Source: an uncultured Clostridia bacterium (GTDB lineage Bacteria > Bacillota > Clostridia > TANB77 > CAG-508). From it: 64,000 nucleotides of DNA. The notes under the pieces were generated by a model. That model did not search any database. It saw only the letters and a list, made by a program, of their open reading frames with translations, and was not told the DNA's origin. Position 1 is the stretch's first letter. Each line of letters starts with the position of its first letter. Shown piece by piece: positions 7,459 through 56,001 of this stretch. The stretch lies in contig CANRED010000006.1 of the NCBI GenBank assembly GCA_947629555.1, positions 102 to 64,101 of the forward strand. The letters run 5' to 3'. The position numbers were made by a program, and so were the translations under genes.

Positions 7459-8085
7459 ATGAAAGAAAAAGAAATAGATAGATTAAATAAGTTAAAAGAA
7501 TACGAAAATGAATTATATGAAACTGGTTTACAATATATTGCAGGAATTGATGAAGCAGGAAGAGGACCTCTTGCAGGACCTGTTGTCGTTGCTTGTGTAA
7601 TACTGCCAAAAGATTCTTTTATAGAAGGAGTAAACGATTCTAAGAAGGTATCTGAAAAGAAAAGGGAAAAATTATATGAAGATATAACTAATGAGGCAAT
7701 AGCATGGGGAGTAGGAATAGTAGATCAAAATGAGATAGACGAAATTAATATATTAAATGCAACAAAAAAAGCACTTACTATGTCAATACAAAGCTTAAAA
7801 GTAAAACCAGATAGAATTTTAGTTGATGCACTAGAGCATATAGATACTTGTGGAATACCATATACTTCTATAATAAAAGGTGATGCTAAAAATTATTCTA
7901 TTGCTGCAGCATCAATAATTGCAAAAGTTACGAGGGATAGAATAATGCGTGAATGGGATAGTGTATATCCACAATATGGTTTTGCAATTCATAAAGGATA
8001 TGGGACAGCAAAGCATATTCAAGCAATAAAAGAAAATGGAATATGTATGTTGCATAGGAAATCATTTGTAAAAAATATAATATAA
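7459..8085 (+). CDS. rnhB: Ribonuclease HII
   Basis: GIDEAGRGPLAGPVV catalytic motif. 208 aa. Confidence 0.95.
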   Translation: MKEKEIDRLNKLKEYENELYETGLQYIAGIDEAGRGPLAGPVVVACVILPKDSFIEGVNDSKKVSEKKREKLYEDITNEAIAWGVGIVDQNEIDEINILNATKKALTMSIQSLKVKPDRILVDALEHIDTCGIPYTSIIKGDAKNYSIAAASIIAKVTRDRIMREWDSVYPQYGFAIHKGYGTAKHIQAIKENGICMLHRKSFVKNII

Positions 8086-8089
8086 GGAA

Positions 8090-8211
8090 GTTTGAAAAAT
8101 AATCAGCATATTACGTCGTTATTTTTAATGAGAAAATCCTCAACGTACCTTAGTATGCCTCCGGTATTTCTCATTAAAAATGCCTAGTACTATACTAATT
8201 CTTTTTCAAAC
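8090..8211 (+). repeat. 122-bp imperfect-palindrome element (ERIC-like; candidate structured RNA), copy 1
   Basis: The outer arms GTTTGAAAAATAATCAGCATA / TATACTAATTCTTTTTCAAAC and the inner arms ATTTTTAATGAGAAA / TTTCTCATTAAAAAT pair. A second copy is at 18877-18998. Confidence 0.85.
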
Positions 8212-8247
8212 TTAATGTGTAAAATTAGAAAGGAATGGGAAGTATTT

Positions 8248-9549
8248 ATGAATATATTAGATATAATAGCCAAAAAAAGAGATAAGCAAGAATTAACAAA
8301 AGAAGAAATTGAATTTTTTATTAATGGATATACAAATGGAACTATTACAGATTATCAGGCAGCTGCACTTATTATGGCAATTTATATAAATGGAATGAAT
8401 TCAAGAGAGACAACAGATATGACTATGTCAATGACAAATTCGGGAGAAACGTTAGATTTATCAAGCATATCAAATATCGTTGTTGATAAGCATAGCACAG
8501 GGGGAGTAGGCGACAAAATTACAATAATACTTGTACCAATAATAGCATCTTTAGGAATACCGGTTGCAAAAATGTCTGGAAGAGGACTAGGATTTACAGG
8601 GGGAACAATAGATAAATTAGAATCAATTCCTGGATATAATGCATCACTTGAGTTAAAAGAATTTGTAGATAATGTAAAAAAAATAGGAATAAGTGTTATA
8701 GGTCAAACTATGAATTTAGCACCAGCAGATAAGAAGATATATGCTCTACGAGATACTATTTCATGTGTAGATAGTATGCCGTTAATTGCCTCAAGTATAA
8801 TGAGCAAAAAAATTGCTGCAGGTGCAAATAAGCTAGTATTAGAGGTAACATGTGGAAATGGCGCTTTCATGAAAAATAAAGAGGATGCTATAAAACTTGC
8901 TAATGAAATGAAAGAAATAGGAAAATTAGCAAATAAAGAAACTATATGTGTTTTAACAAATATGAACGAACCAATTGGAAAAACTGTTGGAAATACATTA
9001 GAAATTATTGAAGCAATTGATGCATTAAAAGGAAATATGAGCGATGACGTAGAAACAATAATTACTACTGTTGGTGCATATATTATTAAATTATCTGGTA
9101 ATGGAAATAATATAGAAGAAAACAAATTAAAAATAATGGAAAATATAAAAAATGGAAAGGCATATAATAAGTTTATAGAGTGGATATCAAGTCAAGGTGG
9201 AGATATATCTTATGTAGAGAATATAGAAAAATTTGAAAAGGCAAAATATATTATGCCAGTTATATCTAAATGTGATGGATATGTAAGTAAATTAAATGCA
9301 TTAGATGTAGGAAAAATTTCTGTAAATTTAGGTGCTGGAAGAATGAAAAAAGAGGATGGAATAGATAATTCAGTAGGAATAGTTTTAAACAAAAAAATAT
9401 CTGAAAAAGTAGCAGTAGGAGATATTTTAGCATACGTATATGCAAATGATGAAGTAAAAGGAAATAAGGCAGTAGAAGATTTATATAATGCGTATGAATT
9501 TTCAAAAAATGAACCAGAAAAACAGGAACATATATTAGGAATAGTTTAA
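8248..9549 (+). CDS. pdp: Pyrimidine-nucleoside (thymidine) phosphorylase
   Basis: MNILDIIAKKRD..., DKHSTGGVGDK and SGRGLGFTGGTIDKLE motifs. ATG 8248 is preferred over the upstream ATG at 8215, which begins only 4 nt after the repeat element (8090-8211). Confidence 0.9.
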   Translation: MNILDIIAKKRDKQELTKEEIEFFINGYTNGTITDYQAAALIMAIYINGMNSRETTDMTMSMTNSGETLDLSSISNIVVDKHSTGGVGDKITIILVPIIASLGIPVAKMSGRGLGFTGGTIDKLESIPGYNASLELKEFVDNVKKIGISVIGQTMNLAPADKKIYALRDTISCVDSMPLIASSIMSKKIAAGANKLVLEVTCGNGAFMKNKEDAIKLANEMKEIGKLANKETICVLTNMNEPIGKTVGNTLEIIEAIDALKGNMSDDVETIITTVGAYIIKLSGNGNNIEENKLKIMENIKNGKAYNKFIEWISSQGGDISYVENIEKFEKAKYIMPVISKCDGYVSKLNALDVGKISVNLGAGRMKKEDGIDNSVGIVLNKKISEKVAVGDILAYVYANDEVKGNKAVEDLYNAYEFSKNEPEKQEHILGIV

Positions 9550-18081: not shown

Positions 18082-18873
18082 ATGAGCAAATATGATGAAA
18101 TCTATTTAGATTTAGTAGAAAATATATTAAAAAATGGATATTATGACCAAAACAGAACAGGAATAGCAACTTATAAACTTCCACACCAAATATTACGATT
18201 TGATTTGGAAGAAGAATTTCCAATATTAACAACTAAATATGTTGCTTTTGGTGCTGCAGTAAAAGAGTTATTATGGATATTCCAAAAACAATCAAACAAA
18301 ATTAGTGATTTACATGAGCAAAATGTTCATATTTGGGATGAATGGGAAATGGAAGATGGTACAATAGGAACATCTTACGGTTGGATAGTAAAAGAATTTA
18401 AACAAGTAGACAAACTAATAGATAAATTAAAAAATAATCCTCAAGATAGAAGAATGGTAATAAATTTATGGCAAATACCATATCTTGATACAGGAGCATT
18501 ATATCCATGTGTATTCAATAGTTGTTGGGATGTAACAGCAGGAAAATTAAATTGTCTTTTAACTATTAGATCAAATGATATTCCACTAGGACATCCATTT
18601 AATGTAACACAATATGCAGTGTTTGTACATCTATTGGCACAAGTTACTAATTTAAAACCTGGATTATTAACTGTATGTATAAGTAATGCACATATATATG
18701 AAAATCAAGTAGAAGGAATGAAATTACAATTATCTAGAAGAGATCAAGCATTACCTGCACCAAAGCTTTGGATAAATCCTGAAATTAAAGATTTCTATGA
18801 TTTCACTCCAGATGACATAAAATTAATTGATTATAAACATTTAGGAAAGATACAGATGGATGTAGCAGTTTAA
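18082..18873 (+). CDS. thyA: Thymidylate synthase
   Basis: [22 protein letters not shown] (the region of the catalytic Cys) and [14 protein letters not shown]. Confidence 0.95.
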
Positions 18874-18876
18874 AAA

Positions 18877-18998
18877 GTTTGGAAAATAATCAGCATATTG
18901 CGTCGTTATTTTAACTATGAAAATCCTCAGCGTACATTAGTACGCTTCCGGTATTTCATAGTTAAAATGCCTAGCACTATACTGATTCTTTTCCAAAC
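18877..18998 (+). repeat. 122-bp imperfect-palindrome element, copy 2
   Basis: Collinear with 8090-8211. The inner arms are ATTTTAACTATGAAA / TTTCATAGTTAAAAT. It lies between the thyA stop and the folA start. Confidence 0.85.
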
Positions 18999-19036
18999 TT
19001 AAACTATGAACTTTTTTAGAAAGGAAGATAATAACT

Positions 19037-19525
19037 ATGTTGAGTATAATAGTTGCAATAGCAAATAAAAATGTAATAGGTAAAGATAATACACTAATTT
19101 GGCATTTACCAGAAGATTTAAAAAGATTTAAAACAATTACTAGTGGTAAAACAATTATAATGGGAAGAAAAACATTTGAATCTTTAGGAAGAGTATTGCC
19201 AAACAGAAAGCATATTGTATTATGCAATGATATGGAAATGAAAATAGACAATGAAAATGTAGAAGTAGTTAAAGATATAAAATATTTAGATAAATACATA
19301 AATTCAGATGAAGAAAATTTTATAATTGGTGGAGCTACAATATACAAATTATTGATGCCATATGCAAATAAAATGTATATAACTAAAATTAACCAAGATT
19401 TTGATGGTGATGCATTTTTTCCAAAAATAAGTGAAGAAGAATGGAAGATAATAGATATACAAAAAGGAATAAAGGACGAACAAAATCCTTATGACTATGA
19501 ATATATAACTTATGTAAGAAAATAA
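19037..19525 (+). CDS. folA: Dihydrofolate reductase
   Basis: IVAIANKNVIGKDNTLIWHLPEDLKRFK and IMGRKTFES motifs. 162 aa. Confidence 0.9.
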   Translation: MLSIIVAIANKNVIGKDNTLIWHLPEDLKRFKTITSGKTIIMGRKTFESLGRVLPNRKHIVLCNDMEMKIDNENVEVVKDIKYLDKYINSDEENFIIGGATIYKLLMPYANKMYITKINQDFDGDAFFPKISEEEWKIIDIQKGIKDEQNPYDYEYITYVRK

Positions 19526-19608: not shown

Positions 19609-20845
19609 CCAATTCAAAAAATTAAAGCAACAAAATAGATAAAAAAATAGACACATATTAAAATCCAATATATAATGTAAGTGCTAACAAAACATTAAAA
19701 GGAGATTAATATGTGTTTAAATAATTGTAACATAGAAGTAGAAGAAAATAAAGAGAGAAAAATAAATTGTGATTTAACATATGAAGAAAGACTAGAAATA
19801 GAAAGAATGTTAAAAAGTAGAACAAAATATACAATACAACAAATAGCAGATGAAATAAAAAGAAATAAATCAATAGTATCACGTGAAATTCAAAGAAACT
19901 CATATATAAAATGGAACGACAGAATAGCAAAATATGTAAGGATATATTCAGCAACAAAAGCACAGTGGCAATATGAATATAGGAAGAAAAATGCTGGAAG
20001 AAAGTCGTCAGTAGAAACAGATAGAGCGATGAAGCAATTTATTGAAGATAAAATATTAAAAGAAAAATGGTCACCCAAAGAAGTAGCAGGATATATAAAA
20101 AAGCATAATATAAAATTTAAAATACAACCAAGTTTTCAAGCGATATACTATTGGATAGAAAAGAAACAGCTAAAAATAAAAGAAATAGATTTAGTGCATA
20201 AAATGAAATTAGAATCAAAGAGTAAGGAAGAGAGAACAGAGAGATTTCCAAGAAATGAAGAAAAAAGTATTCATAGTAGACCAGAAGAAATAGAAAGGAA
20301 TAAAGAATTTGGTCATTGGGAATTAGATTGTGTAGAAGGAAAGAAAGATAGTAAAAAGACGTATATGACACTATTAGAAAGAGTTACAAAAAAATATATA
20401 GTAATAGAAATGAAAGAACATACAAATCAATGTGTAAAAGAAGCAATAGATAGTTTAGAAGAAAGATATGGAAAATATTTTAAAGAAATATTTAAAAGTA
20501 TGACAACAGATAATGGACATGAGTTTTTAAATTATGAAAAAATAGAGAAATCAAAAAACGATGAAAAAGAACGACGAACAATAGTATATTATACAGATCC
20601 ATATAGTGCATGGCAAAAGGGAATGAATGAAAATTGTAATGGAATATTGAGAAGATTTATACCTAAAGGGACAGATTTAAATAAGATAACAACAGAGAAA
20701 TTAGAAAATATATTAAAAAAGATAAATGGAAAACCAAGAGCAATATTAGGATATGAAACAGCAGATGAATTATTTGAGAAAGAAATAAAAAGAATAGTTG
20801 CATAAAAATATATATTGGATTTTGTTGCTATTGAATTTTGAATGG
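19609..20845 (+). mobile_element. IS30-family insertion sequence (~1.24 kb)
   Basis: Imperfect terminal inverted repeats CCAATTCAAAAAATTAAAGCAACAAAAT (left) and CCATTCAAAATTCAATAGCAACAAAAT (reverse complement of the right end). It holds a single transposase ORF and is flanked by an identical 16-mer, ATTATAAAAAAAATTA, at 19593-19608 and 20848-20863. Confidence 0.7.
19711..20805 (+). CDS. IS30-family DDE transposase
   Basis: N-terminal HTH, HWELDCVEG and TDNGHEF / QKGMNENCNGILRRFIPKG core motifs typical of IS30 transposases. Confidence 0.9.
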   Translation: MCLNNCNIEVEENKERKINCDLTYEERLEIERMLKSRTKYTIQQIADEIKRNKSIVSREIQRNSYIKWNDRIAKYVRIYSATKAQWQYEYRKKNAGRKSSVETDRAMKQFIEDKILKEKWSPKEVAGYIKKHNIKFKIQPSFQAIYYWIEKKQLKIKEIDLVHKMKLESKSKEERTERFPRNEEKSIHSRPEEIERNKEFGHWELDCVEGKKDSKKTYMTLLERVTKKYIVIEMKEHTNQCVKEAIDSLEERYGKYFKEIFKSMTTDNGHEFLNYEKIEKSKNDEKERRTIVYYTDPYSAWQKGMNENCNGILRRFIPKGTDLNKITTEKLENILKKINGKPRAILGYETADELFEKEIKRIVA

Positions 20846-20931: not shown

Positions 20932-21008
20932 GCGCCCTTAGCTCAGTTGGTCAGAGCAACCGGCTCATAACCGGTGGGTCCAAGGTTCGAATCCTTGAGG
21001 GCGCACCA
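20932..21008 (+). tRNA. tRNA with CAU anticodon (Met, or lysidine-modified Ile2)
   Basis: Cloverleaf: acceptor GCGCCCT/AGGGCGC, anticodon loop CTCATAA, T-arm CAAGG-TTCGAAT-CCTTG, encoded CCA. Confidence 0.9.
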
Positions 21009-21035: not shown

Positions 21036-21121
21036 GGGTAGGTGGCCGAGTGGCTAAAGGCGGCAGACTGTAAATCTGTTCTCATTTGAGTACGATGGTT
21101 CGAATCCATCCCTGCCCACCA
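21036..21121 (+). tRNA. tRNA-Tyr (GUA), long variable arm
   Basis: Acceptor GGGTAGG/CCTGCCC, anticodon loop CTGTAAA, T-arm GATGG-TTCGAAT-CCATC, encoded CCA. Confidence 0.9.
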
Positions 21122-27425: not shown

Positions 27426-28430
27426 ATGGATGAAAACTTATTAATTCCAAAAATACAAGATGAAACAGAAGAAAGAAATGAAAATAGTTTAAGACCAAAA
27501 ACTTTGGATGAATACATAGGTCAAACAAAAGTAAAGGAGAACATGAAGGTATATATTGAATCAGCCAAAAAAAGAAATGAAACTTTAGACCATGTATTAC
27601 TATATGGACCTCCGGGTCTTGGTAAAACTACTTTATCTAATATAATAGCAAATGAAATGAATTCAAATATAAGAATAACATCAGGACCAGCAATAGAAAA
27701 GCCAGGAGATTTAGCAGCATTACTTACAAATCTTTCTGAAAATGATGTTTTATTTATAGATGAAATTCATAGATTAAATAAAAGTGTTGAAGAAATATTG
27801 TATCCAGCTATGGAGGATTTTTCATTAGATATAATTATAGGAAAGGGACCAAGTGCTAGATCAATTAGATTGGATTTACCAAAGTTTACACTAATTGGTG
27901 CAACAACTAAAGCGGGTTCATTAACTACTCCTTTAAGAGATAGATTTGGAATAGTGAATAGATTAGAATTATATGATGAAAAAGATTTAAAAACAATAGT
28001 ATTAAGATCTGCAAAAATATTAAATATAGAAATAGACGATTTAGGAGCATTAGAAATTGCAAGACGTTCAAGAGGTACTCCAAGAATTGCAAACAGATTA
28101 TTAAAAAGAGTAAGAGACTATGCATCTGTTTTAGGAGATGGAAATATATCTCTTGATATTGCTAGAATTGCATTAGAAAAACTTGGGGTAGACGAATTAG
28201 GACTAGATGAAGTTGATAGAAAAATGTTAGAGACAATTATATTAAAATATACAGGGGGACCAGTTGGACTAGAAACACTAGCAGCAACAATAGGAGAAGA
28301 AACAGAAACAATAGAAGATGTATATGAGCCATATTTAATGCAAATTGGATTTTTGGCTAGAACACCGAGAGGAAGAGTAGCAACACCTCTTGCATATACA
28401 CATTTAGGATTAGAAATTCAAAATAAGTAA
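27426..28430 (+). CDS. ruvB: Holliday junction branch-migration helicase RuvB
   Basis: [27 protein letters not shown] and the arginine finger TTPLRDRFG. Confidence 0.95.
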
Positions 28431-55335: not shown

Positions 55336-56001
55336 ATGAGTGTATTAGAGGTTAAAAATTTACAAACATCATATAATGGACATATAGCATTAGAAAATAT
55401 TAATTTTTCAGTTAACGAGGGAGAATATATTTGTTTAGTAGGAGAAAATGGCTCAGGAAAAAGTACTCTTATAAAAACAATTGTTGGACTTCATAAAAAA
55501 GATAATGGAGAAATAATATTGAATGAAAAACTAGAAAATATCTCATATTTAGCACAAAATAACTTAGTAGATGTGGAATTTCCTGCTACTGCTAAGGAAA
55601 TTATAATGACAGGTGTACAAAAACACAAAGTATTACCTTTTTATACAAAAAAAGATTATAAAAATTTTGAAGAAATTTGTGATTTACTAAAAATAAAAGA
55701 TTTTGTTGATAAAAGAATAGGAAATTTATCTGGTGGACAAAGGCAAAGAATAATGTTAGGACGAGCATTAATTAGAAAGCCAAAGATGTTAATATTAGAT
55801 GAACCCTTTAGTGGACTAGATATTAATATAACAAAAGAATTATATGAAATGCTTGATAAGTTAAATAAAGAAAATAAAATGACTATAATTATGGCAACAC
55901 ATGATTTAGATGAAATTAATCAAAAAAATGTTAGGGTAATAGAATTATCAAAAACAATAAAGTTTGACGGCAATATAACTGATTGGAAAGGAATGAATTA
56001 A
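55336..56001 (+). CDS. Metal (Zn/Mn-type) ABC transporter ATP-binding protein
   Basis: GENGSGKST Walker A, LSGGQRQR signature and ILDEP Walker B. Paired with an ABC-3 permease. Confidence 0.8.
   Translation: MSVLEVKNLQTSYNGHIALENINFSVNEGEYICLVGENGSGKSTLIKTIVGLHKKDNGEIILNEKLENISYLAQNNLVDVEFPATAKEIIMTGVQKHKVLPFYTKKDYKNFEEICDLLKIKDFVDKRIGNLSGGQRQRIMLGRALIRKPKMLILDEPFSGLDINITKELYEMLDKLNKENKMTIIMATHDLDEINQKNVRVIELSKTIKFDGNITDWKGMN

Follow-up and report, generated by a model that had tools for sequence, protein, structure and literature searches.

The window, by which we mean the whole 64,000-nt stretch of uncultured Clostridia DNA analysed here, carries a 122-nt hairpin module at two gene junctions. 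The flanking genes of both copies were confirmed by Pfam, and all four genes and both copies lie on the plus strand. The features of the two junctions are as follows.

8090-8211, plus strand: copy 1, 122-nt hairpin module at the junction of the RNase HII gene (rnhB, 7459-8085) and the pyrimidine-nucleoside phosphorylase gene (pdp, 8248-9549)
8090-8099, plus strand: copy 1 outer stem, 5' strand, GTTTGAAAAA, partner 8202-8211, 4 nt past the rnhB stop codon
8100-8120, plus strand: copy 1 conserved left arm, TAATCAGCATATTACGTCGTT, pairing imperfectly with the right arm (8182-8201)
8121-8135, plus strand: copy 1 variable inner stem, 5' strand, partner 8167-8181
8136-8166, plus strand: copy 1 apex, with a CC/GG pair, unpaired UCAA and CCUCC, and a 5-bp CGUAC/GUAUG stem closed by a 4-nt loop
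8182-8201, plus strand: copy 1 conserved right arm, GCCTAGTACTATACTAATTC
8202-8211, plus strand: copy 1 outer stem, 3' strand, TTTTTCAAAC
8212-8247, plus strand: copy 1 3' tail, TTAATGTGTAAAATTAGAAAGGAATGGGAAGTATTT, with an SD-like GAAAGGA at 8228-8234, abutting the pdp start codon at 8248
18877-18998, plus strand: copy 2, 122-nt hairpin module at the junction of thyA (18082-18873) and folA (19037-19525), 3 nt past the thyA stop
18999-19036, plus strand: copy 2 3' tail, TTAAACTATGAACTTTTTTAGAAAGGAAGATAATAACT, with an SD-like AGAAAGGAAG at 19018-19027, abutting the folA ATG at 19037

A first-pass annotation of this DNA had described the copies as collinear, each folding into one long hairpin, with six compensated base-pair changes between them, and on both counts it was correct. 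The copies are 91% identical in an alignment that includes 10-nt flanks. Their inner stems (ATTTTTAATGAGAAA/TTTCTCATTAAAAAT in one copy, ATTTTAACTATGAAA/TTTCATAGTTAAAAT in the other) differ at four positions per arm, all of them complementary, and the two outer-stem differences (GTTTGA..TCAAAC versus GTTTGG..CCAAAC, and ATTACG..AGTACT versus ATTGCG..AGCACT) are likewise compensated. Its statement that both copies keep the same internal mismatches is true of most of them: pairing between the arms of copy 1 retains U.C, C.A, C.A and U.C mismatches and a 3x3 loop, but copy 2 has changed one conserved C.A to C-G (CTAATT to CTGATT). The apical stem of copy 1 holds one G.U.

Each copy is predicted to fold as a single interrupted hairpin, with minimum free energies of -33.0 (copy 1) and -51.5 kcal/mol (copy 2). 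These correspond to z = -8.0 and -11.4 against dinucleotide shuffles, none of which folded as well. The minus strand is the more stable of the two (-43.6 and -58.8 kcal/mol, respectively) because the C.A mismatches of the plus strand become G.U there. A 30-nt arm pattern matched the window exactly twice and 100 shuffles not at all. Directly 3' of the hairpin lies CTTAATG or CTTGGTTTG rather than a U-tract terminator; no GC-rich stem with a U-tract was found within 7900-8400, the region of copy 1, and a search for an internal promoter gave a single 9/12 match, not above shuffles. From the end of the hairpin to the next ATG is 36 nt in copy 1 and 38 nt in copy 2.

Family size and covariation

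Interspersed palindromic repeats have been well studied in Proteobacteria (REP/REPIN, ERIC and Correia elements) and much less so in Clostridia. The two window hairpins belong to an undescribed repeat family of at least 64 palindromic copies, found by pattern scans and a covariance model in metagenomes and in MAGs of at least 8 Clostridia species. When a left-arm 20-mer was searched for as an exact pattern in species-representative genomes, 37 loci matched, and 35 of them were the same element, hosted by MAGs classed as uncultured Clostridia, Clostridium, Eubacteriales and Clostridiaceae; 16 loci came from one MAG, and the left arms from these genomes were all part of short elements. An independent right-arm scan of metagenomes added 21 loci. 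The covariance model, which the first-pass annotation had proposed building, was trained on 35 copies and run over 0.4 Mb of collected sequence, yielding the 64 copies. Copy 1 scores 139.9 bits on the plus strand and 63.3 on the minus, and copy 2 scores 141.6 bits; across the family the sense strand scores about twice the antisense, leaving the strand unambiguous. Among the matches are divergent variants whose arms have also changed in a pairing-preserving manner (e.g., L026:7139, L032:230, L055:12624 and L020:3225). The family has colonised co-directional gene junctions in uncultured Clostridia of low GC (28%) that form a genus-level clade.

Database comparison placed the element in no described family. 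With Rfam 15 in gathering mode only two tRNAs passed in the whole window, and in E-value mode the element region drew no more than plant miRNA-precursor hairpins that fell short of the threshold (30.8 bits against 100). A blastn search (word 11) of window positions 8086-8250 found no match at E<=0.01 in 5,426 complete E. coli genomes, and nothing was found in plasmids and phages. A right-arm pattern scan of IMG/VR gave 0 matches; six left-arm matches there were dismissed as chance, none of them matching the covariance model. Literature searches by sequence string and keywords found no description of the element.

The family shares the architecture of the window copies. A 10-bp outer stem varies with compensation (GTTTGA/TCAAAC, ATTTTA/TAAAAT, GTTCAA/TTGAAC, TTCTAATGAG/CTCATTAGAA) and encloses a conserved left arm (AATAATCAGCATATTRCGTCGTTA) and a conserved right arm (TGCCTAGYACTATACTAATTCTT, or the variant TGCTTGAGCCA). 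Within these lies an inner stem of ~15 bp that is highly variable and compensated, in a helix with double changes at all 19 pairs. The apex consists of a covarying 2-bp helix (CC/GG or GC/GC), unpaired UCAA and CCUCC, a 5-bp CGUAC/GUACG stem and a 4-5-nt loop. Conservation of the apex, which had been noted from the two window copies, extends to divergent subfamilies ascertained through their arms. The arm mismatches (U.C, C.A, C.A, U.C) and the 3x3 loop are kept in 48-53 of 55 copies.

In an alignment of 55 sense copies, 97.4% of 2,401 cells were standard pairs, and 35 of the 44 pairs had double-sided changes. All five covariation measures beat each of 500 column shuffles, and sliding the pairing partner by 1-3 columns reduced pairing to about 40%. 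Over the 55 copies the covariation is overwhelming. The family is in this respect a clean, information-rich example, with covariation strong enough to define the structure without experiments.

The same constraint operates at fixed loci. Nine copy pairs from different genomes have flanking genes in common, and their flanks are 72-91% identical; for copy 1, orthologous filled sites were found at L011 and L041. Over these nine pairs we counted 32 compensated changes against 14 one-sided ones (6 wobble, 8 breaking), and 63 of 318 positions (20%) differed in unpaired columns. By our estimate, from a d of about 0.15-0.2, neutral drift would produce one-sided changes numbering roughly a hundred. Fixed loci, too, therefore maintain the structure, and the counts exclude a dead drifting repeat, as the first-pass annotation had argued from two copies.

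Covariation of this kind could in principle arise free of selection, as a by-product of template-switch "correction" of a quasi-palindrome or of copying between paired paralogous copies. Double changes do far exceed wobble intermediates, and some "orthologous" copies have wholly different inner stems (L012 versus L058, L013 versus L048), suggesting replacement or conversion. Template switching would, however, erase the four mismatches and internal loops, which persist uncorrected in nearly all copies across species. Arms ascertained on one side are, moreover, still conserved on the other, and at orthologous sites the stems are less diverged than loops and flanks. We regard this origin of the covariation as highly improbable.

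Several copies carry inserted sequence at the apex. A nested palindromic insert of ~60 nt (GGAATACAATTTGCGAAGCAAATTGCATACTGACGCTGTAAAAGGCAAAGCCTTAACAGCCTCAG), in either orientation, sits in or replaces the apex in the following copies.

L021:460-639: copy with the nested ~60-nt palindrome
L035:5421-5600: copy with the nested ~60-nt palindrome
L020:3225-3395: copy with the nested ~60-nt palindrome
L028:2490-2625: copy with the nested ~60-nt palindrome
L035:4018-4153: copy with the nested ~60-nt palindrome

Another, different insert of ~70 nt was seen at L055:7433-7623. The apex looks like a preferred site of a third small repeat.

Operon junctions, the 3' tail and the level of constraint

The first-pass annotation overlooked the size of the family, its orientation bias, the position of the stop codon and the SD-bearing tail, and it is the strict placement relative to stop and start codons, together with that tail, that is unusual. 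Among the 64 copies, 47 lie in the sense orientation between co-directional genes and 4 lie antisense there; at divergent sites 6 copies have a sense gene downstream, and convergent sites hold 2. Where a sense gene lies upstream, its stop codon falls between -13 and +6 nt of the hairpin foot in 45 of 53 copies, and stops inside the hairpin (up to 13 nt in) are the conserved TAA of AAATAATC. Past the hairpin, most copies have 22-60 nt (mode 32-36) before the downstream ATG. Host junctions are those of housekeeping operons (fab, ackA, thyA-folA and polA, also rnhB and pdp), and in the fatty-acid operon of L026 three consecutive junctions are filled (fabG-fabF-accB-fabZ). Lying in sense between a stop and a start, the element must be read through in any operon transcript, and it is in all probability co-transcribed with its neighbours.

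About 40% of copies share a 3' tail of ~36 nt that ends at the next start codon and carries a Shine-Dalgarno-like GAAAGGA just before it. The tail consensus, TTGGTTTGTGCCTTGGAAAGGAATGTGATTAATAAT, is common to many unrelated loci. A local-alignment score of at least 12 against the tail was reached by 25 of 64 element flanks and by 5 of 220 other gene leaders, and AAAGGAATG is found in 22% of the flanks of elements and in 1.3% of other leaders. Ordinary leaders in these sequences have GGAGG-type SDs. The window tails are weak examples, with borderline scores of 12 (copy 1) and 11 (copy 2); they hold the sole SD candidate for pdp and folA. The tightness of the spacing between tail and start codon, seen also at divergent-gene sites, is beyond what random insertion and selection alone would give.

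Tails also occur by themselves. Rare solo tails directly after a stop codon, with no hairpin, were found at L019:~4845 (minus strand) and L023:~3475 (plus strand), e.g. TAAGATTTTGTGCGGTGGAAGGAAGTGTAATTAAATATG; they could be footprints of hairpin deletion between GTTTG direct repeats, or tail precursors. A candidate solo tail at window position 55985 was rejected as a coincidence, since it lies inside a coding 3' end. At L031:3353-6047, two tandem acetate-kinase paralogues both end in the first ~35 nt of the element (GTTTAAAAAATAATCAGCATATTGCGTCGTTATTTAAA), and the full hairpin follows only the second; the gene duplication therefore took in half an element.

The element has been gained or lost between related genomes. 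The thyA-folA spacer is 163 nt in the window and -4 to 28 nt in seven relatives whose ThyA homologues are 81-86% identical; in these, thyA and folA overlap (TAATG) or lie 8-28 nt apart, with GGAG-type SDs. No element copy was found in 76 kb from these relatives, and the empty junctions indicate a gain at this site. At window position 28426 the junction is empty and its counterpart in L016 is filled, the element there replacing the last codons of the upstream ORF and supplying a new stop. At an asnB-like/polA junction shared by L035 and L021, the element, with the same nested insert in both, lies in opposite orientations, which suggests in-place inversion via the palindrome arms or a second insertion. 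Within species we saw no insertion polymorphism, and the same filled thyA-folA site is present in the same-species contig L074. The contig of one relative also carries, upstream of the thyA region (L072:1054-2360), a Thoeris-like defence pair (ThsA_Macro and ThsB_TIR) that is unrelated to the element.

The first-pass annotation had raised a structured RNA as a candidate, and the wobble counts lend that no support: with one conserved U.G excluded, the sense strand has 18 G.U cells against 29 A.C, so there is no enrichment of G.U on the transcribed strand and no sense-RNA signal. The constraint looks like plain Watson-Crick complementarity. Given also that the antisense folds better, it fits a DNA-level hairpin or a strictly selected RNA duplex equally. 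Nor did an anti-SD idea, in which the apical CCUCC pairs with the downstream SD, survive: mean pairing was 4.60 observed versus 4.63 permuted, with no covariation. GC skew puts the element-sense strand on the G-rich strand in 42 of 42 sense contexts and on the C-rich strand in 4 of 4 antisense contexts; transcription and replication orientation are inseparable by this measure because all flanking genes lie on the G-rich strand. On our best reading, selection keeps the element as a hairpin, and an RNA-specific function is a candidate only.

These observations bear on the possibility that the element serves the host as a cis-acting RNA module, recruited to many junctions within operons as a hairpin with or without its own SD. 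Such a module would act in differential mRNA processing or stability, through an RNase III-type site as in the processing of phage T7 early RNA, or in stop-start coupling, with a protein reading the internal loops and apex. The sense orientation in 47 of 51 co-directional contexts, the fixed position between stop and start, the use of housekeeping operons (fab, ackA, thyA-folA, polA) and the very high stability of the hairpin as RNA all speak for it. So do the conserved mismatches, an apex (UCAA-CGUAC-N4-GUACG-CCUCC) that is conserved however the copies were ascertained, and compensated evolution with persistence at orthologous sites. Persistence across about 15% divergence with stems intact looks more like a host-level constraint than the behaviour of a purely selfish element. 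Against it, G.U is in no excess over A.C and the antisense folds better, unlike typical RNA families; the apical CCUCC does not covary with the downstream SD; and Rfam holds no such family. The same junctions work without the element in close relatives, and antisense copies exist, one of them at the junction of a sense copy (L021 versus L035). We consider a recruited RNA module, the foremost alternative to our preferred account, possible and, on balance, unlikely.

Mobility and relation to known repeats

No direct repeat indicative of a TSD flanks the 64 copies, the 3' boundary being uncertain owing to the tail, and the flanks show only an A at -1 and a T at +1, an extension of the palindrome. 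Upstream information is at most 0.8 bit, at -1 only, with no conserved tetranucleotide. Variability is among the highest in the outermost 10 bp, where changes are compensated; conservation is sub-terminal. Classical MITEs have conserved TIRs of 15-30 bp, TSDs and identifiable parent IS families. The element differs on each point, its termini being the most variable part, with no TSD seen and no parent IS found. IS200/IS605-derived PATEs insert 3' of a conserved tetra- or pentanucleotide and have separate LE and RE hairpins, whereas the element is one continuous hairpin with no conserved target.

Between folA and a pair of tRNA genes, 700 nt past copy 2, there is an IS30-family insertion sequence.

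19612-20843 (ORF 19711-20805, plus strand): IS30-family IS with HTH_38 and rve domains and 25-nt TIRs, ATTCAAAAAATTAAAGCAACAAAAT / ATTTTGTTGCTATTGAATTTTGAAT
20932-21005 and 21036-21118, plus strand: two tRNA genes directly downstream of the IS30-family element (Rfam tRNA, 73.5 and 61 bits)

It has hundreds of homologues, on ~1.2-kb contigs of public assemblies. As a parent for the hairpin it was rejected: all that its TIRs, or those of relatives 71-78% identical, have in common with some outer stems is a low-complexity 10-mer (TTCAAAAAAT), and it is missing from about 400 kb of other element-bearing genomes. A scan for RAYT-like or integrase ORFs by HUH and YxxxNP motifs found 0 in about 0.6 Mb, a weak negative that covers part of the genomes only.

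A second repeat family, of GTAG type, resides in the same genomes. It consists of (T)TGCAAAnTGTAGGG followed by a GC-rich hairpin, e.g. GTAGGGAACGACGCCCTCGTCGTTCC, and about 13 copies occur in the 64 kb of this 28% GC genome, nearly all on one strand and some in tandem ~60 nt apart.

5959, 9629, 23341, 24980, 25039, 25099, 53289, 53336, 54113, 55120, 55167 and 62182, plus strand: GTAG-type repeats in the window
16979, minus strand: GTAG-type repeat in the window

At no fewer than ten loci (L009, L016, L019, L026, L027, L031, L036, L037, L039 and L049) such a repeat lies 10-60 nt 3' of the 122-nt element. The presence of this separate family of GTAG REPs suggests that a RAYT exists in these genomes.

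REP arms are short GC-rich palindromes with a GTAG (or CGTC) tag, and REPs and REPINs are associated with a single-copy RAYT, a tyrosine transposase of IS200/IS605 type that is usually flanked by repeats. REPINs are REP doublets that form hairpins, with conserved inverted ends, a spacer constrained only in length and hairpin capacity, and common compensatory changes (Bertels and Rainey 2011; PMC3116915). By that definition (PMC3116915) the likeness is close: the element also has two conserved inverted arms and a variable hairpin-forming spacer with compensatory changes, and both are about 100-120 nt, extragenic, multi-copy and non-coding, with no TIR or TSD. The differences are that the arms of the element are AT-rich, not self-complementary and without GTAG; that an outer stem of variable sequence and a conserved apex are added, and many copies also have a tail with an SD; and that it is strongly sense-biased in a Firmicute host. 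CGTC occurs in the left arm only (GCGTCGTT), with CTTACG or CCTACG instead in one species. A 2013 survey of GTAG/CGTC REPs leaves Firmicutes unmentioned (PMC3733652).

The first-pass annotation had also called the element ERIC-like, which was apt for the kind of repeat, an imperfect palindrome of ~120 bp that is intergenic and operon-embedded, and did not extend to homology. ERIC, from enterobacteria, is an imperfect palindrome of about 127 bp found in transcribed intergenic regions, and ERIC/IRU hairpin RNA can affect the flanking mRNA. ERIC/IRU and YPAL have been listed as MITEs (PMC3733652). The 122-nt element has in common with ERIC a size of about 125 bp, an intergenic and often intra-operon position (with probable transcription) and a long RNA hairpin. 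It differs in lacking sequence similarity (0 matches in the 5,426 E. coli genomes), in its phylum, in showing no TA duplication, in sitting at the stop codon and in having an SD tail. Correia/NEMIS of Neisseria, RUP/BOX of S. pneumoniae and bcr1 of B. cereus are small non-coding hairpin repeats that lie by coding sequences and are co-transcribed (PMC3733652); the element is likewise small, non-coding, hairpin-forming and beside coding sequences.

The element also has points in common with integron attC sites. These run 5' to 3' from R'' (RYYYAAC) to R' (GTTRRRY) and lie in cassette arrays beside an integrase. Likeness to attC (e.g., the 123-126-bp Vibrio cholerae repeats) extends to size, to an imperfect palindrome defined by structure and a few unpaired bases, to a start at, or close to, the stop codon of the gene before it, and to one orientation for all copies. 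The ends of the element (GTTTGAA...TTCAAAC), however, give the inverse R''/R' order on either strand, and there are no cassette arrays or integrase by the element, whose neighbours are core genes (rnhB, pdp, thyA, folA, fabG/F, accB and ackA).

On a further reading the element would be a DNA-level site, a hairpin extruded in replication ssDNA that serves as substrate for a recombinase or HUH enzyme, as integron attC or REP/RAYT do, with its orientation following the fork and not transcription. The Watson-Crick constraint, symmetric between strands, agrees with this, as do the conserved extrahelical or mismatched positions within a variable 120-125-nt hairpin (as in attC/VCR), the absence of TIR and TSD, the agreement of orientation with GC skew in all 42 sense and all 4 antisense contexts, and the GTAG-type REP family that co-resides and often abuts the element. 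Weighing against it are the inverted R''/R' order, the housekeeping operon neighbours in place of cassettes, the weak negative from the integrase and RAYT scan, and the lack of a conserved target tetranucleotide; it also leaves the SD tail and stop-codon position unexplained. We think it improbable that the element is such a site.

A bolder proposal combines position and mobility. The element would be a self-contained "intercistronic cassette", a hairpin with its own 5' stop codons and its own 3' SD tail that is inserted sense-only, exactly between the stop and the start codon of tightly coupled genes. It would have moved without TIR, TSD or linked transposase, by way of either RNA or an ssDNA-hairpin recombinase that would be new to Firmicutes. 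A dedicated protein would read its loops, and the dozens of junctions would form one regulon. We hold this to be a rather unlikely account.

The best reading of the element, to our mind, is as a new family of an already familiar kind of repeat, non-autonomous and REPIN/ERIC-like. The fuller account, which we judge somewhat probable, is that it spread through a hairpin intermediate, survives at the 3' edges of genes where it is sense and folded, and brings a tail that replaces the displaced SD. The intermediate would be single-stranded DNA; the enzyme handling it in trans would recognise the conserved, mismatched arms and would not be a DDE transposase acting on TIRs. Insertions would survive only where they are harmless, at the extreme 3' end of a gene, and the surviving orientation and fold would be those that keep the stop codon near the start codon, and the tail would make ribosome binding possible again. 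Within the transcript, the interrupted duplex of ~50 bp is a likely RNase III target or stability determinant, presumably as a side effect rather than the raison d'etre of the element. Against this account, the scans found no mobilising gene, and a TSD, conserved termini and a conserved target are absent. The lack of insertion polymorphism within species, the intact stems at orthologous sites, the close tie of the tail to start codons and the confounding of transcription with replication orientation weigh against it too. The persistence of the element at orthologous operon junctions across species is of note. Were its relation to stop and start codons a matter of function or targeting, the family would represent a repeat that lives inside translationally coupled operons without breaking them, and it would also be a natural way into the study of RNA structure between cistrons in uncultured gut-type anaerobes.

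The element has a practical side too, in that it breaks short-read assemblies at defined points and could serve as a lineage marker. Three same-species short-read assemblies (L076, L077 and L078) have their 3' ends precisely on the final base of the copy 2 left arm, and a fourth (L075) begins, at its 5' end, at the first base of the conserved left arm of copy 2. Such breaks are as expected for a multi-copy repeat.
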